Part shown: piece by piece, positions 4,441-29,244 of the stretch | How the letters are laid out: every line of letters starts with the position of its first letter | Numbering within the stretch: position 1 is the first letter of the stretch | NCBI GenBank assembly: GCA_963794735.1 | Contig: CAWCFE010000002.1 | Coordinates: forward strand, 2,374,141-2,438,140 | Origin: Vulcanimicrobiota bacterium | Lineage (GTDB): Bacteria; Vulcanimicrobiota; Vulcanimicrobiia; Vulcanimicrobiales; Vulcanimicrobiaceae | DNA length: 64,000 nt | Reading direction: 5' to 3' | Translations under genes and position numbers: made by a program | The notes under the pieces: model-generated | Database searches by the model: none | What the model saw: only the letters and a program-made list of their open reading frames with translations | Told to the model about the DNA's origin: nothing

Positions 4441-5394
4441 TTATTTGTCGCCATCCTGTGGCTCATGCAGGTCAGAGTCGAGGTTTTCTATCGTCAAAGA
4501 TTCTGGATCGAGGCTTAGAGCCGGGAACACGCGTTCTTGAATGCCGATTCTGTGCTGGACCATAATCTCAAGTAGCTTTGCTCCATCGATGAGACCGATG
4601 GGGGTCTTTCCCGCTTCCTGTGCCTCTGTGACCGCCGATGCGGTGAAAGTCCCCGAGGATACAATTAGCCCGAGTTGTCTATTGGTCAGCGATCCCCGCA
4701 CGTTTTGAATCGTCGGCCGATCGACGCTGGCCGTCCTCTTCGCCTGTATAGCAACGTCAACGGGCGTCGCACCGCCGACATCAAAAACCGCCGTAGCATC
4801 AATCCCCTTGTCGCCGCTATAGCGGGTAACGGCGACGCTTCGGTAGCCGAGGGCGATCAGAATTCGCTTAACGAGGAATTCGAACGCGCGGGGGTCCATC
4901 GACTGTACAAGAGCGCGCAATTCGGCTTTAACCTTAAGGTTGCTTTTGCTGATCGCTTCACCTAAATCGTGAACGTTTTCGTACGTGCGCCCAGCACCGT
5001 TCGAGCGTGGCTTTAGTCTGCCGCTAAGTAGAACATCTAATGCTCTTGCCTGCTCATCCGACAGGCGGAAATTGGTACCCTGCCATCCCTGAAATACTGC
5101 CACCTCCGAAAGCGTAAGATCGCTGCGAACCTCATCACGTCGCAGTTCTGGCTCGACGAACGCATCGTACAATACATCAACCTTGAACTTTCCAAAGTTG
5201 GATGCATCTTCGTACACTGGAGATGATACGTGGCCTATAGCCGTAAGCGATGCGTTCGATCCAGAGCGCCAAAAGTAGATACGATCTCCAACAGAAACGC
5301 TTTCGCGATTCTGGTTCATGGCCCACCAATCGGTTGATGCCGTCGCTGTGAGCTGATCCCAACGTCGCGGATTGTATTGAAAAACCCAATTCAT
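4441..5394 (-). CDS. EVE (PUA-like) domain fused to Mrr-type restriction endonuclease domain
   Basis: The N-terminus MNWVFQYNPRRWD..GDRIYFWRSG is EVE-like. The C-terminus GYRSVAVTRYSGDKGIDATAV..VAIQAKR is an Mrr-cat D..(Q/E)xK core. Start placed at the internal ATG 5394 (the ORF is open to 5442). Confidence 0.7.
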   Translation of the reverse strand: MNWVFQYNPRRWDQLTATASTDWWAMNQNRESVSVGDRIYFWRSGSNASLTAIGHVSSPVYEDASNFGKFKVDVLYDAFVEPELRRDEVRSDLTLSEVAVFQGWQGTNFRLSDEQARALDVLLSGRLKPRSNGAGRTYENVHDLGEAISKSNLKVKAELRALVQSMDPRAFEFLVKRILIALGYRSVAVTRYSGDKGIDATAVFDVGGATPVDVAIQAKRTASVDRPTIQNVRGSLTNRQLGLIVSSGTFTASAVTEAQEAGKTPIGLIDGAKLLEIMVQHRIGIQERVFPALSLDPESLTIENLDSDLHEPQDGDK

Positions 5395-5815
5395 TTGTTC
5401 CGCTGCCTCATCGCGATCTATGCCGCATGTTCTGCGTCTCAATCGCCAATAGATACCTGTACGCCTGCACCTCCGGTGAGCGCCAGCTCCCGCTTCGATG
5501 CCGAATCAGCAGTGGAGATTGACCATCCCTCATCGATCAGGTCTCCCGTAGTGCCGAAAGGTCATCTACACCCCGGAAAAGTCCGGGTTGCCAACACGTC
5601 ACTTCGCTATTCCGGCCGCGCGCTCCCCACCGGATGAACCAAGGAAGCGGGTTGGTGTGTCGCAACTGTCGAGTCGGTGGATAATCGGCTTCGCGAGTAT
5701 TGCCAAAGCTCTGGACTCATCTAATCAGACGCTCTGAAAGAATCGCGAAAACACGGATGCTCAGGTTCGCAGGAGCTTTGCAGCGATCGGTCCGGTCGAG
5801 CCAGAATACCGTAAC

Positions 5816-9483: not shown

Positions 9484-11294
<1,811 letters not shown>

Positions 11295-17017: not shown

Positions 17018-18250
17018 ATGGCTAAACGACGACGAGTCAAAGGCGAAGGCACGATCGTCAAACGCAAAGACGGCCGCTTCGAGTCGAAAATCTCGCTTGG
17101 AATCGTAAACGGCAAACGAATCCGTAAGACTGTTTACGGAAAATCTCAAGCCGAGGCGCTCAAGAAGAAGCGAGAACTGGAAGCGCGCGCGGGTCGCAAC
17201 GTGCCAGATGGCAGGCTAAGCGAGTACCTCGAGCAATGGCTCCGTGACGGCAAGTCTCGCTGGGAACCGCAAACGTATCGAACGTATCTTGCATGGTTAA
17301 GGAATCACGTCTTGCCGTATTTCGGCTCGCGAAGGATAGCCTCATTGACCTCACAGGACATCCGGGTCTGGCTCCGGCAGCTCGAGGACAACGACGTTGG
17401 GCCAGTTACAAGAAAGCGTTCCTTGTCGACGTTGAAGTCCGCCCTAAAGCAGCTCGTCGACGAGGAGCTGCTCCCCAGAAACCCATGCAATCCTGTAAAG
17501 CCGCCAGTAGTTAGACGTCGCGAGTTTTACGTTCCGAAACCCGATGAGATCAAAGTCCTCTTGCACGTCGCGCAGCCGTACTGGTTCTTTGTGTTGGTTC
17601 TTGTCGCGTTCACGTGCGCTATGCGCGAGGGAGAGATCTTCGCGCTTTATTGGAGTCAGGTCGATCTCAAAGAAGGTAGCGTTTTGGTCGATCGCAGCTT
17701 GGGCGAGGACTGGAATGGCAAGCCGATTCGAAAAGAACCTAAAAACAAGTACTCGCGCAGGGTCCTGTATGTGCCACCCGTTACCGTGGCTGCTCTGCGA
17801 AAGCTCAAGGAAGAGCAGGTCAACGCCGGTTACCTTGGTCCGTGGGTCTTCCGAGATGAAGAAGGCGGACCGCTTCGGAAAAGCAATTTTATCAGGAGAC
17901 TTTGGAAGCCCCTTATCGACACCGCTGGCCTACCGTACTTCAAGTTTCACGCTGCGCGGCACGCTAGCAATTCGATCTTGATCGCGCAGGGCGAGAATCC
18001 ACTCGCAATCGCGCGCCGTATGGGTCACGCCGATACGCGCATGACGTTCGATACATACGGGCATTTTTTTGAAAATGGGGCAGTGGCTGCAAGCAAGGTC
18101 GGCCGCGCTCTGGATGAGGCCGGTGTAAATGTTGAGGCGTTCGGACTTGGTGAGCCGTTGAAAACGCGCCCAGCCACGGCGCAAGACAATAAGCGACAAC
18201 TGCCGTCGTCGAAACCCGTTTCTAGGCCCTCGCAGGGTCGAAGAAGATGA
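17018..18250 (+). CDS. int: tyrosine recombinase / phage-type integrase
   Basis: Catalytic pattern AMREGE (R), HAARHAS (HxxR), GHADTRMTFDTYGH (H..Y). Confidence 0.9.
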   Translation: MAKRRRVKGEGTIVKRKDGRFESKISLGIVNGKRIRKTVYGKSQAEALKKKRELEARAGRNVPDGRLSEYLEQWLRDGKSRWEPQTYRTYLAWLRNHVLPYFGSRRIASLTSQDIRVWLRQLEDNDVGPVTRKRSLSTLKSALKQLVDEELLPRNPCNPVKPPVVRRREFYVPKPDEIKVLLHVAQPYWFFVLVLVAFTCAMREGEIFALYWSQVDLKEGSVLVDRSLGEDWNGKPIRKEPKNKYSRRVLYVPPVTVAALRKLKEEQVNAGYLGPWVFRDEEGGPLRKSNFIRRLWKPLIDTAGLPYFKFHAARHASNSILIAQGENPLAIARRMGHADTRMTFDTYGHFFENGAVAASKVGRALDEAGVNVEAFGLGEPLKTRPATAQDNKRQLPSSKPVSRPSQGRRR

Positions 18251-18381
18251 GCGTTCTACTGTCTGGCTTGCGTGGCGCAACGTAACGATGGTCGAGCCGG
18301 GCCGTATCTGCGGCAGAGTGTTCGAGGCGTCGATTTTAACTAGACAGTGAAACCGGCGGCCAGCGAGAATCAATCAAGCGC

Positions 18382-21270
18382 GTGGACGATTCCTTAAAAC
18401 TACTAGAACCGCTTATCAAAACGCTCGCCGAGACCCTCGGGCGACACTTTGGTGGGCAGGTCCAATGGATTAGTTCTCCCGCGAAACACCGCCTTCGTGA
18501 CTCGGGACTCTGCCTGCGAGTCGACATAGATTCTGAAAACTGGCGTGGGGCCTTAACCCTGGCTCAAAGCATAAGCGCCTTGGGAATCCGAGAAATTGCG
18601 AAGCGAAAGCGAAAGTCGCCGTGGTCAGAAATCGTCGTATGCTTGGAAGCCGATAAAGCAGCAATCGCTGCCAGCCGAGAATATTTTATTCGCCTCTATG
18701 AGCTAGTTCAAAATGAGCCGATTAAAGTTTTTGTAACCCTTGAACGTTCGATCGCGCAGTTCAGTATCACGGCTTTCGGATTTCAGCTTGCCGAGGGAGT
18801 TCTGGCTGTATATGACGAGCAAACCGTTACTAGGCAGTTAGTTCGAGACGCCCGCGATATCATAGTTCGAGGGCCAGCAGAGATCCCCGTAACGCTGCAC
18901 AGTTACATCGGAAAGATTCTGGATGAAAGCCCAATTGATATTGATTTGGCCCCGGTCGGCGGAACTATCGAGTTGCCGAGGGGAACGCTGATAACGATTC
19001 CAGATTCGACGCTTGGTCCATTGCCAATCCTCAATCTTGACATGGCAGTGATGAGGCGTTCGCGCCCGGACAGTTTCGCATTTACTTACGATGATCCGCT
19101 TTTATTCAAACTTTCCAATCGCGACGGATCAGGCCTGGACCTCGACATCCTTCAAGATAGGTCGGCAGTGCCCTCGCTCGATCGTCGTGGTCGCGCTATT
19201 TGCCCAATATGCTGGTCATTGCATCAAAAAAGAGACGATTCAAGCGACGCTAGCGAGCCTTCAAATGGCCAGAGTCCTGGAGCTCGCATAACGTTTGCCC
19301 TATCTGACGGAAGTAACGCAATCGAGGAGGACGTCCCGTGCCCAAATTGCTTTGACGCGTTAACTCGCAGCGACCATCCGATCCTGCTCTCGACGATCGC
19401 GCGTGTGTTGCGAACAATTCCGGGGGAACTATCAGACTGGCATCTACTGGTGGCTGAGCGTATACGTGCCATCTGTCGAAGACTTGACCCGAAGTTCCCA
19501 GCGCTCGCCGGCAAGGAAGCAAGCCGAATCGAGGAGCTTGAGTGGCGCCTTCGCGAGAGCATTTCCGGGCTCAAAACTGAGGATGTTGTGGGGTACTTTA
19601 GACCCCTACTGGAGCTCGGTCGAGACGAGCTGGCGATTCAACACGGTCTACACTCGGCATTCAAGGAGTATTTCTATCTGCTTGGGTTGCTGGCGTCAAC
19701 ACAAGAACCGTCAGACCCCGCGATCCTAGACGGAACCAAACGTTGGCATATTAAACTTTGCTTGGAGTCACTTATCGAAGCTCATGTATCTCCCTACGGG
19801 CCGGGCTTCGGCGAGCAGTTCGATTCCCTACGGAGTGAGCAAAGAACGTTACTGAGCGCCGCCGCCTTCATTGAGGGATACTGCAACCTTCCAGCTCAGA
19901 CAACGCAGAGCGCGGTTGAAAGATTATTTAATACGGCGCTGTGGCAGGCGCGGGACCTTCCCAAGCTCATCGGCATGTCGCTTAAGGAGCTTCTCCTTGC
20001 GACGTTACACGCAATTCGGCAATCGCCTCGGCCGCCGACTGACGGCGTAGCAGCGTTATGTTGGGCCATCGATCTTACGGATTCGAGTCCTCCGATATCG
20101 AAGTACCATCGATTGTTCGATTTGGATCATCACATTACTTCGCCCGGCGAGGTGGAGTCTTCCATTGTCACGCGTTTCCACGATCGCTTTGGGATACGCC
20201 GAGGATCACATGATGGACCTCTGGCATTTGTTCAACAAAACCCCGCCGAGATGAAGCCCGTATTCTTGATGCCCGACGGAGTAGCCGTTTATCCAGAGCC
20301 AGCGGCCCTTCTTCAGTTGCTGGAGCGATGCATTGAAGGAACGTATAGAGGCACCTTTCGGAAATATTTGAATCGTCGGGGCGACCTTCTTGAATATCAA
20401 GTTGAGCGTGCCTTACAGCTACTCACACCATCCGGGTATTACAAAGACGTATTCCTTCGGCTCGGCGAGTTTCAACGCGATTTTGTCGTGGTTAGTCGAG
20501 TTGCAACGCTGTGCATTGAAGCCAAGGCCGTACTCCGGAAGTTGCAGCGGACTTCAATGCGGGAAGCCCTCTTTGACTTGAGAGATAACTTTAGGGATGG
20601 GCCAGAATTTGCCCTCGCGCAAGCTTACGACATGTCGAAAGCCCTAGAGGACCACTTTACAAACGATCACCCCTTGTACGACAGCGAAGGGTCTCAAATA
20701 TCAATCGAGCCGCTGCAAGAAGTCCGTACATACGTCCACATCGCCGTAACCAGCGAAGAATATGAAATCATGGCGGAGCGTCCGCACCTCCTCGATCGAT
20801 CGCTTCCTCCCAATAGTGTAATTGTTGCTGGCCATGAGTTCGAGTTTATCGTGGACGTCATGAATCGACTGCAGCTCGGGGTCGACGGTCTTGCAAAGTT
20901 CTTTGAGCAAAGAGCACGATTCGCGCACCTCATCCAGGCTGACCATATATATGGATGGCTTGCCGGATTCATAAAAGGCCATGGTACGTTGGAACCATTT
21001 GCCGTTGAAGGCGGCATGCGGTTCCTTCGCGGTGGCTATGAGTTTGTGAATGCGATGCAGCGAGTGTTATTCGCTAATGACTGGTCCGAGTTTGATGAAT
21101 TTATGGAGCGGGAGATCCCGGAAGAGGCACTCGCCCCGATGTGGGTAGCGTCCTGGGATGCTGCTACGATCGTTCCAACCGAGCCGTGCCCTTGTGGTTC
21201 GGGCCGAACAGCGCAAGAGTGCCATCTAGCGGCGAACCTCGCTGAGCCAGCTCCAAAAGACCGTGGATGA
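18382..21270 (+). CDS. 962-aa protein with Zn-finger pairs, a NERD-like PD-(D/E)xK core and a C-terminal SEC-C motif
   Basis: CPICWSLH..CPNCFDAL; EYQVERAL..RDFVVVSRVATLCIEAKAV; C-terminal CPCGSGRTAQECH. GTG start. Confidence 0.6.
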   Translation: MDDSLKLLEPLIKTLAETLGRHFGGQVQWISSPAKHRLRDSGLCLRVDIDSENWRGALTLAQSISALGIREIAKRKRKSPWSEIVVCLEADKAAIAASREYFIRLYELVQNEPIKVFVTLERSIAQFSITAFGFQLAEGVLAVYDEQTVTRQLVRDARDIIVRGPAEIPVTLHSYIGKILDESPIDIDLAPVGGTIELPRGTLITIPDSTLGPLPILNLDMAVMRRSRPDSFAFTYDDPLLFKLSNRDGSGLDLDILQDRSAVPSLDRRGRAICPICWSLHQKRDDSSDASEPSNGQSPGARITFALSDGSNAIEEDVPCPNCFDALTRSDHPILLSTIARVLRTIPGELSDWHLLVAERIRAICRRLDPKFPALAGKEASRIEELEWRLRESISGLKTEDVVGYFRPLLELGRDELAIQHGLHSAFKEYFYLLGLLASTQEPSDPAILDGTKRWHIKLCLESLIEAHVSPYGPGFGEQFDSLRSEQRTLLSAAAFIEGYCNLPAQTTQSAVERLFNTALWQARDLPKLIGMSLKELLLATLHAIRQSPRPPTDGVAALCWAIDLTDSSPPISKYHRLFDLDHHITSPGEVESSIVTRFHDRFGIRRGSHDGPLAFVQQNPAEMKPVFLMPDGVAVYPEPAALLQLLERCIEGTYRGTFRKYLNRRGDLLEYQVERALQLLTPSGYYKDVFLRLGEFQRDFVVVSRVATLCIEAKAVLRKLQRTSMREALFDLRDNFRDGPEFALAQAYDMSKALEDHFTNDHPLYDSEGSQISIEPLQEVRTYVHIAVTSEEYEIMAERPHLLDRSLPPNSVIVAGHEFEFIVDVMNRLQLGVDGLAKFFEQRARFAHLIQADHIYGWLAGFIKGHGTLEPFAVEGGMRFLRGGYEFVNAMQRVLFANDWSEFDEFMEREIPEEALAPMWVASWDAATIVPTEPCPCGSGRTAQECHLAANLAEPAPKDRG

Positions 21271-22342: not shown

Positions 22343-23935
22343 GTGGCTATGCGGGTATGGCCCATCACCGACGCGGATAAATTCTTCGAAGCCTTCTCAA
22401 ACCGCTGGATTACGGGTGAAGAGGTTCAGCGACGGTCGAGACAGGCAAAATATCTCTACAAGTATCTGCAAAACGCGGATGTTGACGCTAAATCGTTTAT
22501 CGTCGAGGACCAATACGTCGACGGCGACTATCTGGAAGATTTCGCATCCTTCTACGTAAGCAGCTTCCCACCTTATGGGCGCTACTGCAAACGCATTCAC
22601 TTCTTCAATCAAGCACTGACTCAAGCCGAAGTGGAAGGTGTATTTTCAGGCGACGATCCAAAGGGTTCAAAAGTACTTGTAGATTCGTATGTCGGTTTTA
22701 TCGTGGCAAGACCGCTTCCCCAAGCGGTCGTTGGACGCACCGTTCTTCGGACTTACGGCGAGATCGAAGATAAGCGATGCTATCCGACTATCCGAGAGTA
22801 CAGTCCGTGCCTAAACGGCATTTCTCTTCGCGTGAAGAGTCTGGCGTTTGAGGAGCAAGACACCTCAGTGGCCGCGTGCGCCACAGTGGCACTTTGGTCG
22901 GCATTTCATAAGACCCATGACCTCTTTGGGAGCCAACGTCCGCGCCCCGCGGCGATAACTCGTGCCGCGAACATCGTTCGCTCTTTTGGTCGCGCCGTGC
23001 CCTCCGGTGGTCTTAATGCCATGCAGATGGGGGAGGCTATCAGAGCCGTCGGCCTGGAGCCTGAATATTATTCGATCACTCCGGATACGCCCGCGATGTC
23101 CTTGATCTACTCATACGTTTCTGCCGGTATCCCGGTCATTCTGGGGTGCTTCATAGAAGAATTGGGATTCCACGCCATCACGATAACTGGCTTCGCATTA
23201 TCGGCCCCAGCGGCGGCTCATCCAGAGGTGAAGTACAATCGCGTCGTATCCCGCCCCGGCATCCGGGTTGAGAAGCTGTATGCGCACGACGATGGCGTCG
23301 GCCCTTTTGCGAGTCTACCGGTACATGCGACACCTCCAGGCATATTGGATCCCTTAGGCAATCCGCTCAATCCACCGTTCGCCTTGCTTTCCGATTGGGA
23401 ATTGCCGACAGCAAAAGGCGTCCGAAGCCAAGCGTACCTTCTTCCGGACTCGGTCATCGTTCCAGCGTACGCCAAGATGCGCGTTTCCTATCTCGCCGCT
23501 CACTCGCTCGTCGCGCGTTTGATGGAGATGCTTGAGAAATTGGCTCCAGCCTTTGTAGCGCAGGGGCTCGACGTAACCAAGGTAAGCTGGGACATCAAGA
23601 TGGCTATCGTGAACCCGTTCAAAGCTTGGCTCCGCGAGAAATGTTGGGCTAACAAGGAAGCCCGCGATCTAGCCGGCGATCCGCTCCCACGTTTCCTCTG
23701 GACGTCCACAATGTACCTTGAAGATGATCCCACCTTACTGTTAGTTTCGGACGCGACCGATACGGAGCGAACTTGCCCGCTTCTACGCACCTTATGGCTC
23801 GACAGCAAGTATCGCACGCTGTTTGAAGCCATGTTTTCCGACGCGGCAATCGAAAAGCAGTGGCGCATACCCCTCACGCCGCGTTTCTATGACACTCTCA
23901 AGACGGGGCAGGCGGAATTTCTACGCAATGTCTAG
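22343..23935 (+). CDS. 530-aa protein with a papain-like Cys-peptidase signature
   Basis: EEQDTSVAACATVALWSAF (Gln then Cys), ELGFHAITITGF (His), YAHDDGVGPF (Asp), in papain-fold order. Confidence 0.5.
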   Translation: MAMRVWPITDADKFFEAFSNRWITGEEVQRRSRQAKYLYKYLQNADVDAKSFIVEDQYVDGDYLEDFASFYVSSFPPYGRYCKRIHFFNQALTQAEVEGVFSGDDPKGSKVLVDSYVGFIVARPLPQAVVGRTVLRTYGEIEDKRCYPTIREYSPCLNGISLRVKSLAFEEQDTSVAACATVALWSAFHKTHDLFGSQRPRPAAITRAANIVRSFGRAVPSGGLNAMQMGEAIRAVGLEPEYYSITPDTPAMSLIYSYVSAGIPVILGCFIEELGFHAITITGFALSAPAAAHPEVKYNRVVSRPGIRVEKLYAHDDGVGPFASLPVHATPPGILDPLGNPLNPPFALLSDWELPTAKGVRSQAYLLPDSVIVPAYAKMRVSYLAAHSLVARLMEMLEKLAPAFVAQGLDVTKVSWDIKMAIVNPFKAWLREKCWANKEARDLAGDPLPRFLWTSTMYLEDDPTLLLVSDATDTERTCPLLRTLWLDSKYRTLFEAMFSDAAIEKQWRIPLTPRFYDTLKTGQAEFLRNV

Positions 23936-24067: not shown

Positions 24068-24096
24068 TTGACATCTATTCTCCACTTCTGTAAGCT
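24068..24096 (+). promoter_or_regulatory. sigma70-like promoter TTGACA-N17-TAAGCT upstream of the XRE-ImmA pair
   Basis: Read directly from the sequence; 14 nt before ATG 24110. Confidence 0.3.
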
Positions 24097-24109
24097 TACG
24101 GATAAAGAA

Positions 24110-24448
24110 ATGAAGACATTTGGTGAGAGAATAAGGGAACTAAGAGAACAACAGGACTTGTCACTTCGAGAGCTTGCAAGACTCGTTGGAACCTCGGCCG
24201 CCTTTCTTTCGGACGTCGAACTTGGCAGGCGACATCCATCCCCGGAAGTCCTGAAAAGCATAGCTCAGAAGCTGCGAACGACCGCGAAGGACCTCCAGGA
24301 GTACGATCAACGACCGCCGATAAAAGATCTGCAGCGTCGAGCAGCGGCCAACCCTGTATATGGCACGTTATTCAGAAAAGTTCTGGAGCATGACGACCCC
24401 CAAGCGCTAATCGACTTCCTAGACCGTCGAGAACGAAAGAAGCGATGA
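24110..24448 (+). CDS. XRE-family HTH transcriptional regulator
   Basis: FGERIRELREQQDLSLRELARLVGTSAAFLSDVELGRR. ATGA overlap with the next gene. Confidence 0.8.
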   Translation: MKTFGERIRELREQQDLSLRELARLVGTSAAFLSDVELGRRHPSPEVLKSIAQKLRTTAKDLQEYDQRPPIKDLQRRAAANPVYGTLFRKVLEHDDPQALIDFLDRRERKKR

Positions 24449-25146
24449 AGACGCGCCGCACAAATATCGGACCGTTCAAGGAGCGGCCCTTCTACTCTCT
24501 TGAAGAAATTGAACGGATGTGCTCCGACGAACTTCAGAGTGTCGGCCTTTATCCAACCAGCCCTGCTCCCATTCGAATCGACAGATTTCTCGAAAAGCGC
24601 TTCAAGATAAACGTTTCATACGAAGACCTGCCGCGAGGGATCCTTGGCTTTACCGAATTCGGCAGTAAAGGGCCCGCCGCGATTGTTGTTTCGAAATCGC
24701 TAGATGATGGCAAGCAGAGTTCGGAGCGCCGGATTCGCACTACTTTAGCGCATGAAGGTGGGCACGGTCTGCTCCACGCGCACCTGATGGTCATGGCTCC
24801 CCAAACAATCACTCTCTTCGAAGGGGACCGTGGCACGCAGCGTCCCAAGATTCTGTGTCGCGAGGACGGGCCCTCGAACGTGCGAAGCGCGAAATACGAC
24901 GGCAAATGGTGGGAATTCCAGGCCAATCAGGCAATGGGGGCGTTGTTGCTTCCAAGAAGCCTTGTCGAGGAAGCATTGCGCGAGTTACTGGTCTCGTCCG
25001 GGTCCTTTGGGAGGTCTACAATCGCGCCGGCGCAGCGCGCGGTAGCCGCGGAAATTCTTTCGCAAACATTCGAAGTCAACCAAGTTGCGGCTCGCCTCCG
25101 CCTGGACACGATTTTGCCCAGCGCCGACAGGCAGTTGACACTCTAA
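24445..25146 (+). CDS. ImmA/IrrE-family zinc metallopeptidase
   Basis: HExxH motif in TLAHEGGHGLLHAH. Coupled to the XRE gene. Confidence 0.75.
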   Translation: MKTRRTNIGPFKERPFYSLEEIERMCSDELQSVGLYPTSPAPIRIDRFLEKRFKINVSYEDLPRGILGFTEFGSKGPAAIVVSKSLDDGKQSSERRIRTTLAHEGGHGLLHAHLMVMAPQTITLFEGDRGTQRPKILCREDGPSNVRSAKYDGKWWEFQANQAMGALLLPRSLVEEALRELLVSSGSFGRSTIAPAQRAVAAEILSQTFEVNQVAARLRLDTILPSADRQLTL

Positions 25147-25235: not shown

Positions 25236-25370
25236 ATGAAGTTTAGGCAAGTTGCCGTCGCCATCGTCGCCGTCGGTTCCACGGCGTTAGCGGTCGAAGC
25301 TTTTTACGAGCACCCAACGTTCGGTAGAGGGATCCAGGCGTTGCTCGCAGTTCTGGGGCTGCGTGGATAG
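25236..25370 (+). CDS. 44-aa hydrophobic peptide
   Basis: GGAGG 5 nt before the ATG. MKFRQVAVAIVAVGSTALAVEAFYEHPTFGRGIQALLAVLGLRG. Not in the ORF track. Confidence 0.4.
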   Translation: MKFRQVAVAIVAVGSTALAVEAFYEHPTFGRGIQALLAVLGLRG

Positions 25371-25371
25371 A

Positions 25372-25572
25372 ATGAGCAAATTCAAAGGTCGCCATCGGGA
25401 CGAAGACGGTGAAGCGAGCCGCAAGCACGGCAATACTCAAGTGGGCAACCTTCGAAAGACGTATGGGGACGACTTCGCCAAGGACTATCGAAGCGACGCC
25501 CACCTCAAGACCGTCCTTAACGATTCCGGCGCTTCCTCGCTCTCGGACTATCTTAGGAAGCATCGCAAGTAA
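25372..25572 (+). CDS. 66-aa basic hypothetical protein
   Basis: ATG 1 nt after the stop of the 44-aa ORF. Confidence 0.4.
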   Translation: MSKFKGRHRDEDGEASRKHGNTQVGNLRKTYGDDFAKDYRSDAHLKTVLNDSGASSLSDYLRKHRK

Positions 25573-25588: not shown

Positions 25589-25609
25589 GTCTAAACTGTG
25601 GCGCATCAG
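25589..25609. repeat. GTCTAAACTGT + GGCGCATCAG motif pair upstream of the DUF1883-like gene
   Basis: The 11-mer recurs inverted at 25930-25940. The 10-mer recurs direct at 25964-25973. Confidence 0.6.
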
Positions 25610-25630: not shown

Positions 25631-25900
25631 TTGGACTTCATCCACGCCCGCGAATATCTTCAGGGGGGTGACGTCGTGATCGTCAACTGTTCGCACCAAT
25701 GCAACGCACTTCTTACAGACGACTTCAATTTTTCTTCATATCAAAGCGGCGGGCAGTTCCATTACTACGGCGGCCACTACAAACAGTTTCCAGTCCGGAT
25801 TGTAGTTCCGTCGGCGGGGTTCTGGAACGTAACGATCGATCTCGGCGGGGGGGCCGCGCAGATTCGCTATAACATCTCGTACCTCAAGAAGGCCAGCTAA
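25631..25900 (+). CDS. DUF1883-like protein
   Basis: GDVVIVNCSHQCNALLTDDFNFSSYQSGGQFHYYGG..VPSAGFWNVTIDLGG fits my recollection of DUF1883. TTG start after GGGAGG. Confidence 0.5.
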   Translation: MDFIHAREYLQGGDVVIVNCSHQCNALLTDDFNFSSYQSGGQFHYYGGHYKQFPVRIVVPSAGFWNVTIDLGGGAAQIRYNISYLKKAS

Positions 25901-25929
25901 TACACAAACCGGATCCTCATTACTGCTCA

Positions 25930-25973
25930 ACAGTTTAGACGCCGCCTAGATACGCTCGAAAGCGGCGCATCAG
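25930..25973. repeat. ACAGTTTAGAC (inverted copy) ... GGCGCATCAG (direct copy) upstream of the Ubl gene
   Basis: Partners of 25589-25609. Confidence 0.6.
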
Positions 25974-25991
25974 TTGCAAACAAGGTGTAGC

Positions 25992-26306
25992 ATGGAACAA
26001 GAACGTCAAGCCAAAGATGCACGGCTCCTCGGAGTCGCAGTCATCACTCCTTCAGGAACCTTTCCTGGCGAAAATGATCTACGCAAGGCCGAGCCCGACG
26101 AGAAGGTAGAGGTCGTCCTCAAAGCAGCTGCGGAGGCCCTGGGGCTTACTAACACCTCGGACTGGGTCGCATCCGTTGACGAGCGAGACATTAATCCATC
26201 GCATACCTTTCGAGAAGAAGGGTTAACTTGCGTCGTCGAGATTGAATGGCACAAACGGGAGGGCGGCGGTGGCTCATCCGGAAATATCGAAGCGGCTCTT
26301 CGATAA
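25992..26306 (+). CDS. ubiquitin-like (beta-grasp) protein, BilA-like, with GGGG plus a 10-aa C-terminal tail
   Basis: 104 aa ending ..IEWHKREGGGGSSGNIEAALR. Sits directly upstream of the E2/JAB/E1 genes. Confidence 0.65.
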   Translation: MEQERQAKDARLLGVAVITPSGTFPGENDLRKAEPDEKVEVVLKAAAEALGLTNTSDWVASVDERDINPSHTFREEGLTCVVEIEWHKREGGGGSSGNIEAALR

Positions 26307-26700
26307 GGACGTCGCCGCCCTCACGGAGGAAGCCGCCAAGAGTCTTCGGTTCGCCGTCAATTCCAAGGAGTTTCCGACGCTCGATGTCACCGTCGAGCAC
26401 TCGAAGCCGATTCGGTTGCGCTTCCAGTGCGAGGACTGGGACGACCAGCCGCCATCAATAGAGTTACTCAATCCAGACGGAACGGCATACGACGGAACGA
26501 TGCCGTCAAATAACGTCTTCAATGGCGCCGCCCACCCCAAAACCGGCAGGCGATTCGTCTGCATGCGGGGATCGCGAGAGTATCACACGCATCCGAGCCA
26601 CGTGAACGAATCGTGGGGCGCCTATCGCGGGCAAGACGGCATGAACGTTTGCGGAATTCTTATGCAACTGGCTCGGTCCTGGCGAAAAGGTATCGCATGA
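26269..26700 (+). CDS. prokaryotic E2-like ubiquitin-conjugating protein, BilB-like
   Basis: AAHPKTGRRFVCMRG (HP..loop + Cys) and WDDQPPSIELLNPDG. GTG 26269 lies 6 nt after GGGAGG (alternative TTG at 26242). Confidence 0.7.
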   Translation: MAHPEISKRLFDKDVAALTEEAAKSLRFAVNSKEFPTLDVTVEHSKPIRLRFQCEDWDDQPPSIELLNPDGTAYDGTMPSNNVFNGAAHPKTGRRFVCMRGSREYHTHPSHVNESWGAYRGQDGMNVCGILMQLARSWRKGIA

Positions 26701-27167
26701 GAAAGGTCCTATGCCGTGGCGCAATAATCGAAGAAACTTTAGAGAGTCTCCGTTCCGCGGGAAACCATGGCACCGAAGGCGTTGTCATGTGGCTGTCCAA
26801 CGGAATCCAAAGTCCGATATCCATCGCCGAGATCTTTGTCCCTCAGTACAGTGCCGGGGAACTATATTTCGAAATACCACCAGATGGAATGCGGGGGCTT
26901 ATGCGGTATTTGAGGGCGAAGCGGCTTGCCTTAGCCGTTCAAGTCCACTCGCATCCTCGTCGTGCCTTCCACTCCTGGTTCGATGATCGTGATGCTGTAC
27001 CCAGGCACGTTGGCGCCCTATCAATAGTGGTACCGCGATTTGCCAATCACGTGAGCATAAACAACTTTAAACGCGTATGCGCTTTCTATCGCCTGAGCGG
27101 CGATAACCATTGGCTGCGAATTCTCCGAAACGATTTGTCGGACTACTTCGAGATTGAAACGCCATGA
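26697..27167 (+). CDS. JAB/MPN (JAMM) metallopeptidase, BilC-like
   Basis: TEGVV (Glu) and HSHPRRAFHSWFD (HxHx7Sx2D). ATGA overlaps on both sides. Confidence 0.85.
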   Translation: MRKVLCRGAIIEETLESLRSAGNHGTEGVVMWLSNGIQSPISIAEIFVPQYSAGELYFEIPPDGMRGLMRYLRAKRLALAVQVHSHPRRAFHSWFDDRDAVPRHVGALSIVVPRFANHVSINNFKRVCAFYRLSGDNHWLRILRNDLSDYFEIETP

Positions 27168-28507
27168 ATCCGCAGCGAGAGAATCATCTAACCGTCGCAA
27201 AACTCCTCGGTATTGCCGAAGACGAGGCGACCGAGCGACTTTCCCGCCGAGTCGTCATCACTGGTACGGAAGATTCAAGAACGTTATGCACCGAATTGCG
27301 CGATCAACTCGAACGCACGCTGACTATAGTTGAGGGGATTGATGCAGACGTGGAGGTGGTTCTTGGTGACGAACCGAGAACAAACGCGCGTACGATCTTG
27401 TACGTCAGGATCTCGTATGACGGCGTGACCGTTGCTAGTCAAGGACCGGCTACTATGGAGCAAGGCGTTCATCCGCTTCTAGTAGCGATTGGCGCCTGCT
27501 ACGTCGCGTCGAGTGTCACAGAAGCCGCGGTAGGCATTGGCAAGGGTGCGGGCCTGCCACTCAATATCCAGTTCGCGGATCTTGGAGTCAGCAACGAACT
27601 GCTCGCAGTGCCGGTATTTCTTCGCGACGCCGCGCTTGCGGGAGCCGGAGCGGTTGGCAATGCCTTTCTACGAGCCCTCCGTCACCTCAAACCCTCCGGG
27701 TCCCTAACCGTCGCCGATCCTAAGCGCGTAGCGCCCGGAAATCCAAATCGCTGCCTCTACTTCGACAATGCTAGCGTGGGCAAATGGAAGGCCGAGGAAC
27801 TCTGCGAGCGGGCGAAGGCTGATTTGTTCGAGCTTAAGCTGGAGCCATTCGTCGGTACGCTTACAGACTTGGCGAGAAGACTGGGTCGAGTTCGCCGAGT
27901 CATAGTAGGGACGGACAGCCGCCGCGTAAGGCGCACTATTCAAAGCGAAATTCCGTTGGAGGTTTTGGACGCCTCTACGACCGGAGTCGACGAGGTCATT
28001 GTCCATTCGCACAGGCAACCCACCGGGGCGGCTTGCCTCTCCTGCATCTACCGGCACGTCGACGAAGAGAACGCTCTTGAAAAGGATATTGCCGAAGGTT
28101 TAGGCATCGACGTATCCGATATTGAAAAGGGACTTATTGATGAAGAAGTCGCCAACAAAATTATTGCAAGCCACCCCGGCCTAGAAAAGAACGAAATCAT
28201 AGGCGTGGCATTCGACAGTCTATTTCGCCGTGTTTGTGCCGCTGCGGCTCTTAAACTTCCAACTGGCGATCAGGTGTTCGCGCCGTTCGCCTTTGTTTCG
28301 AGCCTCGCGGGAGCGCTGTTGGCAATAGAGCTGCTAAGATTCGACTCCGAAGTGCCGCCGAACACGAATTACTTCGTTGCTAACCCATGGCGGCCGCCAA
28401 ACCCGATGATGCGGCGGAGACGACCCAAGGTGCCCGACTGCGTGTTCTGTTCACGACCTGAGATTATCGAGGCCATGAACTGCGTATGGGCGGACGTACT
28501 ACAATAA
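27164..28507 (+). CDS. E1-like ThiF-family adenylyltransferase, BilD-like
   Basis: LAGAGAVGNAF Rossmann loop, GNPNRCLYF, GTDSRRVRR, and CLSC / CVFC pairs. Confidence 0.8.
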   Translation: MNPQRENHLTVAKLLGIAEDEATERLSRRVVITGTEDSRTLCTELRDQLERTLTIVEGIDADVEVVLGDEPRTNARTILYVRISYDGVTVASQGPATMEQGVHPLLVAIGACYVASSVTEAAVGIGKGAGLPLNIQFADLGVSNELLAVPVFLRDAALAGAGAVGNAFLRALRHLKPSGSLTVADPKRVAPGNPNRCLYFDNASVGKWKAEELCERAKADLFELKLEPFVGTLTDLARRLGRVRRVIVGTDSRRVRRTIQSEIPLEVLDASTTGVDEVIVHSHRQPTGAACLSCIYRHVDEENALEKDIAEGLGIDVSDIEKGLIDEEVANKIIASHPGLEKNEIIGVAFDSLFRRVCAAAALKLPTGDQVFAPFAFVSSLAGALLAIELLRFDSEVPPNTNYFVANPWRPPNPMMRRRRPKVPDCVFCSRPEIIEAMNCVWADVLQ

Positions 28508-28511
28508 AACG

Positions 28512-28874
28512 ATGCTAAAGCTCATCGCCGATCTCTGGAAGGCGCTGCTCGATTTTGCCCTAGGTCTATTAGGCGCTGGAGCAAAAAGCCCGACGATCGG
28601 CGCCCGGCGCACCGTCACGATCGCGAAGTTTGATCGAATCACACCGGATCCACCGCCGATGCACTGGTCGCCGTGTCACCCGTCGACGATTCAACGGTTC
28701 AAAGCGTCCATGACCTGCCCACGCGGACACAGTCTGACACTGAAAAGCCATTCCATCCTCGTCGACGGCCGTGTTCAGCCGAGCGTGATCTGTCCTCATC
28801 GCGGCTGCGATTTTCACGAGTTCATTCGGCTCGAAGGATGGGATTATTCTGTACCGCTCCAGGGTCGTTACTGA
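28512..28874 (+). CDS. 120-aa protein with an N-terminal hydrophobic helix and a Cys/His cluster
   Basis: Starts 4 nt after the E1 stop. MLKLIADLWKALLDFALGLLGAG; CPRGH..CPHRGC. Confidence 0.5.
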   Translation: MLKLIADLWKALLDFALGLLGAGAKSPTIGARRTVTIAKFDRITPDPPPMHWSPCHPSTIQRFKASMTCPRGHSLTLKSHSILVDGRVQPSVICPHRGCDFHEFIRLEGWDYSVPLQGRY

Positions 28875-29168: not shown

Positions 29169-29244
29169 TGGTGGAGATGAGGAGACTCGAACTCCTGACC
29201 CCTTACATGCGAAGCAAGTGCTCTACCAGCTGAGCTACATCCCC
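29169..29244 (-). tRNA. tRNA-Ala (anticodon CGC), CCA encoded
   Basis: The reverse complement is GGGGATGTAGCTCAGCTGGTAGAGCACTTGCTTCGCATGTAAGGGGTCAGGAGTTCGAGTCTCCTCATCTCCACCA. It folds as a cloverleaf with a G3:U70 pair and anticodon loop TTCGCAT. Confidence 0.95.

Follow-up and report, generated by a model that had tools for sequence, protein, structure and literature searches.

Bil (for bacterial ISG15-like) operons of Type II, which were defined by Chambers et al. (bioRxiv 10.1101/2023.09.26.559546) and also carry the older names CEHH and 6C, are described in the literature as four genes. In the operon of Ensifer aridi TW10 (PDB 8TYX, 8TYZ, and 8TZ0), these encode, in order, a ubiquitin-like protein (Ubl, BilA), a CEHH-type E2 (BilB), a JAMM-family deubiquitinase (DUB, BilC), and a multidomain E1 (BilD). 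An operon of this already known kind is present in a 64,000-nt stretch of contig CAWCFE010000002.1 from a Vulcanimicrobiota bacterium (hereafter the window, in whose numbering all positions are given), where the locus considered here spans 25631–28874 of the + strand. In contrast to E. aridi-type operons, the subclade to which this locus belongs has a conserved fifth gene, which encodes a protein of 120 residues. The locus is best read, with a probability of roughly 60%, as a CapH/CapP-controlled Type II BilABCD operon whose fifth gene would encode a peptidase resembling BubE of the Bub operons and in which a DUF1883 gene is a passenger.

As judged from sequence, the four core genes almost certainly form a Type II BilABCD operon. 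They comprise bilA (25992–26306), which encodes a Ubl precursor of 104 residues with a GGGG stretch (91–94) followed by a 10-residue tail; bilB (26269–26700, GTG start), encoding a CEHH-type E2 with C98, E104, H106, and H111; bilC (26697–27167), encoding a JAMM/JAB DUB-like peptidase of 156 residues; and bilD (27164–28507), encoding an E1 of 447 residues, all on the + strand. The map of open reading frames (ORFs), the gene overlaps, and the domain assignments give the Type II order Ubl–CEHH/E2–JAB DUB–E1, and a preliminary description of this DNA had correctly recognized a Ubl–E2–JAB–E1 core with the bilA-B-C-D order of Bil. Pfam assigns Metal_CEHH to BilB (2e-7), Prok-JAB to BilC, and both E1-N (inactive adenylation, 8.9e-19) and ThiF (active adenylation, 3.9e-12) to BilD, which has the multidomain layout of a Type II E1: the inactive adenylation domain is N-terminal, ThiF is the active one, and the catalytic cysteine lies in a helical insertion.

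The only significant sequence relatives of the core proteins in the PDB are the Type II Bil proteins of E. aridi. BilD matches the E1 (8TYZ_A) with E = 1.9e-11, a distant relationship in which C358 is aligned to the catalytic C417. BilB matches the E2 (8TYZ_C, 1.2e-4) such that C98, E104, H106, and H111 fall on C138, E144, H146, and H151. BilC matches the DUB (8TYX_B, 3.3e-15) with E27 on E33 and with the HSHP…S..D motif retained, its JAMM stretch HSHPRRAFHSWFDD being aligned with HSHPGRAYHSTTDD of 8TYX_B. All assigned catalytic residues of the E2, JAMM, and E1 proteins align with the catalytic positions of their families, as the preliminary description had expected. The family identity of the core proteins and the conservation of their catalytic residues are direct observations.

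Type I BilABCD of Collimonas (Millman 2022, Hör et al. 2023), which conjugates a Ubl in antiphage defence, has these four functions too and arranges them identically. It differs in its Ubl, which has two β-grasp domains, and it shares only the cysteine and the last histidine of the CEHH motif. The PADLOC Bil models match BilB (0.003) and BilC (6.9e-9) weakly, none of them matches the Ubl or the E1 of the window, and there is no significant match to the full Type I BilA–D model set. Because the relatives are the E. aridi Bil structures and the PADLOC Bil models are weak or absent, the core is assigned to Type II and not to Type I. The conjugation of the Ubl to phage structural (tail-fibre) proteins, which the preliminary description had ascribed to Bil, pertains to Type I; the attribution to Bil is right, whereas the window operon is of Type II.

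Several features define the subclade. The window E1 has 447 residues as opposed to 535 in E. aridi, and the Gly-rich loop, the NR motif, the catalytic cysteine (C358), and two CxxC pairs (C291/C294 and C426/C429) are invariant among BilD proteins of the subclade. Like the E. aridi Ubl, BilA has a tail past the conserved glycine, but its GGGG stretch is followed by 10 residues, whereas published Type II Ubls have “up to nine” (bioRxiv 10.1101/2023.09.26.559546). The GGGG stretch is invariant in 15 orthologues, and the tail after it means that processing is required. The short E1, a Ubl whose GGGG precedes a 10-residue tail, and a co-directional CapH/CapP pair mark out a subclade.

Hints of a ubiquitin-like fold of BilA come from its family. 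The Multiubiquitin domain (Pfam Multi_ubiq) is found on a Methylobacterium orthologue, 6 of 15 family members have weak TUG-UBL1 matches, and weak Ufm1 matches also occur in the family. Neither phmmer nor the family profile retrieves a solved Ubl from the PDB, hhalign against E. aridi BilA likewise fails, and the single-sequence AlphaFold2 (AF2) model, with a predicted local distance difference test (pLDDT) score of 60, has no ubiquitin match.

The fifth gene (28512–28874, +, nicknamed bilE-like) starts 4 nt after the TAA stop of bilD, and its linkage to this subclade of Bil is observed from both directions. A single-sequence BilD scan of genome contigs gave nothing; an alignment-based scan found BilD relatives, and all of these with an intact subclade operon carry the fifth gene (9 of 9 genome loci and 3 of 3 plasmids). 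The nine genome loci are from Bradyrhizobium and from seven Methylobacterium and Methylorubrum species that share one element. Conversely, the 11 close homologues of the 120-residue protein, all metagenomic, always have bilABCD in their context, and every locus anchored on the fifth gene carries Bil (L001–L005 and 16 further metagenome loci that were found by a degenerate DNA motif scan). No locus of this BilD subclade thus lacks the fifth gene, which is represented by 20 distinct proteins (<90% identity), and there is little doubt that the linkage is conserved. It is absent from the E. aridi-type operons of pNGR234a and R. etli p42a and from the WYL-regulated Type II Bil operon of Bradyrhizobium sp. 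184. The conserved unit is bilABCD and the 120-residue protein gene, often with capH–capP.

No description of a fifth Type II Bil component was found in the searched literature on Bil, and the gene is apparently undescribed. Annotation often misses it. In two of the three plasmids, B. barranii pBb1S5b (L015, 2395–2754) and R. leguminosarum plasmid CP049733.1 (32526–32807), it is unannotated, and the exact 120-residue product is not among the NCBI gene calls for the source genome; surveys by visual inspection could have overlooked it. The strict linkage of a fifth gene bears on the choice of genes to clone and test; constructs that omit it may be toxic, hyperactive, or inactive. The seven Methylobacterium and Methylorubrum species share their Type II Bil element (L007–L013) in identical form. 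It lacks CapP, its BilA has three Multiubiquitin domains, and the fifth gene lies upstream; its identity across seven species implies recent horizontal spread.

Directly upstream of the locus and co-directional with it lie capH and capP, which overlap by 4 nt. CapH (24068–24448, +) is an XRE-type helix-turn-helix (HTH) repressor, for which the ATG at 24110 is the likely start, giving 112 residues (Pfam HTH_3 3.3e-14, PADLOC capH 3.5e-16). CapP (24445–25146, +) is an M78/IrrE-type metallopeptidase of 233 residues with HEGGH at residue 103; it matches PADLOC capP at 1e-9, Pfam Peptidase_M78 at 5.8e-4, which is under the family cutoff, and a hidden Markov model (HMM) of Bil-linked CapP proteins at P = 1.3e-6. 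The adjacent XRE HTH and M78 HExxH proteins, encoded as an overlapping pair beside an immune operon, resemble the CapH/CapP DNA-damage switches as well as IrrE/DdrO and ImmA/ImmR. CapH/CapP is found beside 15% of Type II Bil operons and is divergent in all but one case (bioRxiv 10.1101/2023.09.26.559546). In the window, by contrast, the pair is co-directional with the bil operon and there is no divergent arrangement with a shared promoter; in most relatives the pair is divergent. The 233-residue CapP also differs from the CapP proteins of the described switches; E. coli CapP has 288 residues with HTH and GAF domains (2026 CapP preprint).

While the described CapH/CapP module has two proteins, relatives of the window locus carry a third coupled gene after capP, which is the fifth gene. 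Its commonest place is third in a capH–capP–X operon divergent from bilABCD, and in most distinct loci only a few nucleotides separate its start from the point where the M78 gene ends, an overlap of 4 nt being frequent. Its place is after bilD in the window, L001, and L081, and ahead of bilA in the Methylobacterium element and L099. If the protein belonged to the CapH/CapP module and not to the conjugation chemistry, as a small Zn-ribbon partner for nucleic-acid sensing or binding or for modulating the cleavage of CapH by CapP, this would explain why the gene is usually third in capH–capP–X. Such a role would also suit its absence from Type II Bil operons that lack CapH/CapP (NGR234, R. etli, and Bradyrhizobium sp. 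184) and the short length of many of the linked CapP proteins (often 178 residues as opposed to 288 in E. coli). However, the fifth gene stays with bilABCD, after bilD or before bilA, in three distinct loci without an HExxH CapP (L001, L007–L013, and L081), the whole operon separates it from capP in the window, and the 2026 CapP preprint does not mention a third component. The best folds in BFVD are Zn-ribbon regulators (MqsA, Ogr/Delta, and the N-terminus of NrdR, E 0.03–0.14), but these matches derive from a low-confidence model, and a pure Zn ribbon would leave the invariant Pro-Ser-Val and Phe-His of the protein unexplained. A regulatory partnership with CapP is thus rather unlikely.

The fifth protein combines an N-terminal amphipathic helix (residues 2–21) with a predicted Zn-binding core. 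Across 32 Bil-linked proteins, there is no variation at C55, C69, H73, H80, P90-S91-V92, C99, F101-H102, and W110, and 31 of 32 retain C94, the likely fourth zinc ligand, giving the conserved pattern TCPxGH…H.I..dG.V.PSV.CP..GC.FHEF.RL..W. The AF2 model (pLDDT 63) has a confident helix at 2–21 (pLDDT 76–87) and a C-terminal β region, and the homologues have amphipathic W/L/F-rich N-termini. The protein has no Pfam, PADLOC, or PHROG family, a sequence-profile search of the PDB returned only noise, and Foldseek searches with the AF2 model found nothing in the PDB and only generic Zn ribbons in BFVD (E at least 0.03).

A candidate relative is BubE, a DUF6527 (PF20137) serine peptidase that Bub (6E) operons encode as their second peptidase (Ye et al., bioRxiv 10.1101/2024.11.21.623953). 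BubE is a compact β-sandwich with activity in removing Ubl conjugates; its zinc site is of the C4 type (C57/C59/C61/C99), Ser92 and His102 form a dyad, and one terminus carries a hydrophobic extension (bioRxiv 10.1101/2024.11.21.623953). The two proteins are alike in their small size (~110 residues for BubE), the hydrophobic terminal extension, the zinc site (predicted for the fifth protein), and a Ser…Cys-x-x-His stretch, PSV…GCxxH[F/Y/E][F/W][I/V]. Both genes reside in Ubl–E1–E2 operons that often have CapH/CapP, and neither family has a relative of solved structure. The differences are a shorter core, the fifth protein lacking ~13 residues that BubE has between zinc knuckle and Ser strand, and zinc ligands of C/H/C/C as opposed to C4. 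In addition, the Bil enzymes found with the fifth protein are of the thioester type and already include a JAMM DUB, whereas BubE accompanies oxyester-type Bub enzymes.

The DUF6527 set comprised the two published BubE sequences (Table S2 of bioRxiv 10.1101/2024.11.21.623953), both of which match PF20137 at about 1e-20, and 120 more that were collected. The hhalign comparison of 161 fifth-family sequences with these 122 DUF6527 sequences gives a score of 22.4 over 59 columns (P = 0.002, probability 13%), and the register sets CPxG[H/C], PSV, and GCxxH of both families together. In this register, S91, H102, C69, H73, and C99 of the fifth protein fall on S92, H102, C57, C61, and C99 of BubE. In a column-shuffle control, none of 200 alignments reaches 22.4 (mean 11.7, maximum 20.7). 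When the DUF6527 HMM is run over the 6670 ORFs of all fetched loci, the fifth-gene superfamily, which makes up 1.45% of the set, accounts for 9 hits among the first 20 and 43 among the first 100. The similarity is suggestive of remote homology between the fifth protein and BubE/DUF6527, and a BubE-like Ser91/His102 peptidase, i.e., a second Ubl-cleaving peptidase of the operon, is by a slight balance of probability what these sequences point to. If so, the fifth gene would link the Bil (thioester) and Bub (oxyester) systems via a shared second deconjugase.

A number of observations weigh against this assignment and against the reading of the locus built on it. Pfam DUF6527 matches neither the window protein (E ≤ 1) nor any of ten relatives (E ≤ 0.1). 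The hhalign probability is 10–13%, the HMM cross-scores are 5–9 bits, and the addition of a further divergent DUF6527 sequence did not improve the hhalign result. The AF2 model falls below a pLDDT of 50 at conserved residues within 23–64 and yields only the generic Zn-ribbon matches. One BubE zinc cysteine is a histidine in the fifth family, and the Ser-to-Cys spacing, although equal to that of E. coli BubE, is one residue off that of Citrobacter BubE. Among the short homologues of the protein described below, 1 of 79 matches phrog_15183, the best PHROG of BubE, at a cutoff of E ≤ 0.1 (E = 0.04), amid many equally weak matches to other families. The coupling to capP in most distinct loci, together with the absence of the gene from the WYL-regulated operon with its similarly distant BilD, would fit a regulatory function. 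For the locus as a whole, the β-grasp fold of BilA could not be confirmed directly from sequence or from its weak AF2 model, and the antiphage activity and targets of Type II Bil are not established in the literature consulted.

The proposal that the 120-residue protein is an accessory to Bil came from the preliminary description, and the co-conservation with the Bil subclade and its apparent novelty bear this out; the sensor, target specifier, or membrane effector roles suggested there have less support than a BubE/DUF6527-like peptidase. A function as E3-like adaptor, specifier, or membrane effector would supply what Bil operons lack, namely a recognized E3, and it would agree with the strict operon linkage, with a hydrophobic N-terminal helix, and with predicted zinc binding of the kind found in RING and treble-clef E3s. 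The protein has, however, a single set of zinc ligands and not the binuclear RING pattern, and the helix is amphipathic (it contains D, K, and W); homologues have it short or in variable form, unlike a conserved transmembrane segment. Moreover, Type II Bil conjugation runs in vitro without an extra factor (bioRxiv 10.1101/2023.09.26.559546), and expression from the regulator operon as well as phage-encoded short homologues fit an antagonist better. Such an E3-like or effector function is accordingly improbable.

The BubE-like peptidase reading suggests the following working scheme, in which all biochemical activities of the locus proteins are assigned by homology. DNA damage or infection would activate CapP, which would cleave the CapH repressor and thereby induce the operon. 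The JAMM peptidase BilC would then trim the BilA precursor after Gly94, and BilD would adenylate the exposed glycine and hold BilA as a thioester on C358. From there, BilA would pass to C98 of BilB, which would conjugate it to lysines of the targets, probably phage proteins by analogy with Type I Bil. The fifth protein would most likely act as a Zn-stabilized Ser91/His102 peptidase that cleaves BilA fusions or conjugates and so restrains or recycles the system, with its amphipathic N-terminal helix possibly keeping it at the membrane. In most relatives the fifth gene, within a divergent regulator operon, is translationally coupled to capP, which fits a basal “safety” deconjugase.

Short homologues of the 120-residue protein, here referred to as minis, have 66–95 residues and lack the N-terminal helix. 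They make up most of a superfamily of 1511 clusters (50% identity) that was retrieved at E ≤ 1e-3 in an HMM search of 1.84 billion representatives. The serine and the histidine are nearly invariant in minis, and the superfamily belongs to no Pfam or PHROG family. Two of them match phrog_15183, one of these, a viral mini, at 0.0035. No Bil genes are detectable in mini-carrying loci, though many of the contigs are short. Eleven of the loci are IMG/VR viral contigs, and the neighbors in the five loci inspected include the terminase large subunit, the major head protein, and helicases. Viral and metagenome contigs with minis include L021–L031, L063, L083, and L094, and a tblastn search of deposited phage genomes with one mini returned nothing; all minis encountered are from IMG/VR and metagenome contigs. 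On contig L032, a mini gene (1332–1580) is directly followed by a DUF6527-like gene (~1580–1894; 27 bits to the DUF6527 HMM). This tandem and the two phrog_15183 matches are further hints of a tie to BubE/DUF6527.

Should the domain be a Ubl peptidase, one may speculate that minis are phage counter-defence enzymes. In the fullest form of this proposal, the 120-residue protein would found a minimal DUF6527-like family of Ser/His zinc-dependent Ubl peptidases and would be a true fifth component, “BilE”, serving as a built-in deconjugase, while phages would use minis to strip Ubl conjugates; this is a tentative and at present doubtful extension. Phage-encoded minis are nevertheless testable candidates for anti-ubiquitination counter-defence and, if the proposal is true, would parallel in prokaryotes the viral deISGylases and deubiquitinases.

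The DUF1883 gene (25631–25900, +, TTG start), which lies between capP and bilA, is an inserted passenger cassette and not part of the system. It follows a GAGGGAGG ribosome-binding site, and its product matches PF08980 at 5.6e-25 over profile positions 1–88 of 89 and is related to Atu1913 (PDB 2B1Y, 8.5e-6). The preliminary description took it for an accessory gene and the six-gene block for one unit, in which DUF1883 might be a sensor or specifier. The gene is on the same strand as bilA and lies 91 nt upstream of it, and DUF1883 is elsewhere fused or adjacent to TIR domains and so can be immunity-related. Against these points, a scan of ~35 related Bil loci found no DUF1883 homologue. Homologues with 66–69% identity adjoin IS1595 transposases in unrelated surroundings without Bil genes, and the domain is also present in 108 plasmid records. 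Three of these contexts were inspected, on a 7-kb plasmid, on a Bradyrhizobium plasmid, and at a Tn3-linked copy by a TIR gene, and all are unrelated to Bil. As for an inserted cassette, two inverted copies of the 11-mer ACAGTTTAGAC (25589–25599 and 25930–25940), which occurs nowhere else in the window, flank the gene, and a duplicated 10-mer, GGCGCATCAG, lies ~20–30 nt ahead of each start codon (regions 25589–25609 and 25924–25973). These repeats are either an insertion scar or a duplicated operator. A single six-gene system is highly improbable, and neither the accessory role of DUF1883 nor the six-gene architecture is upheld.

The Tn3-linked copy is on E. coli pKPC-b33e (L112, 8638–10188), where the genes of a 255-residue protein with a DUF1883 domain and of a TIR-domain protein form a divergent pair within a Tn3-family element beside blaKPC-2. 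This pair may represent a separate DUF1883–TIR module.

Between capP and the DUF1883 gene are two tiny coupled ORFs (25237–25572, +) that encode a hydrophobic product of 44 residues and a basic product of 66 residues. The first has a GAAGGAGG ribosome-binding site, and the second starts 1 nt past its stop. The 66-residue ORF has no homologue in related Bil loci, a search of which the 44-residue ORF was not part. A conserved pairing of the 66-residue ORF with DUF1883, as YjzC and DUF1883 appear in Bradyrhizobium, was considered and rejected, there being no similarity.

All six ORFs previously reported for 25631–28874 are present on the + strand at their reported positions, as are the motifs quoted for their products: FVCMRGSREYHTHPSH, HSHPRRAFHSWFD, GAGAVGN, NRCLYF, CLSC, CVFC, and CPRGH…CPHRGC. 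Direct reading of the DNA gives ATGA overlaps at 26697–26700 (bilB/bilC) and 27164–27167 (bilC/bilD), and likewise the bilD stop and the gap that follows it. The claim of almost no intergenic space is accurate from bilA to the fifth gene, the range of tight packing, but not for the gap between DUF1883 and bilA. Gene calls are identical in an independent metagenome assembly of the same DNA, including the GTG start of bilB and the 112-residue CapH. In 23.8–29.3 kb, neither a sigma-70-like promoter nor a convincing terminator was found.

The locus is the last cargo of a stretch with a G+C content (GC) of 52–56%, which ends at a tRNA-Ala(CGC) gene identified with ARAGORN (29169–29244, −), where GC rises to 64–68% (step 0.56 to 0.68). 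The stretch also contains a tyrosine integrase (17018–18250), IS21 genes, and an EVE–Mrr nuclease, consistent with the earlier placement of the operon on a lower-GC island with an integrase. CapH, CapP, the two tiny ORFs, and the tRNA-Ala end of the island are additions to that account. The integrase is ~11 kb from the tRNA-Ala end, of which no att-like direct repeat was found. It is followed by a 962-residue protein (region 17018–21270) whose sole recognizable feature is a C-terminal SEC-C motif. Immediately upstream of capH, a 530-residue ORF (22343–23935) is an orphan island gene that matches nothing in Pfam or PADLOC and has homologues in none of the related Bil loci. Still within the lower-GC region but further to the left, istA/istB of IS21 occupy 9484–11294, and an EVE–Mrr_cat fusion at 4441–5442 (−) is likely a modification-dependent restriction enzyme.

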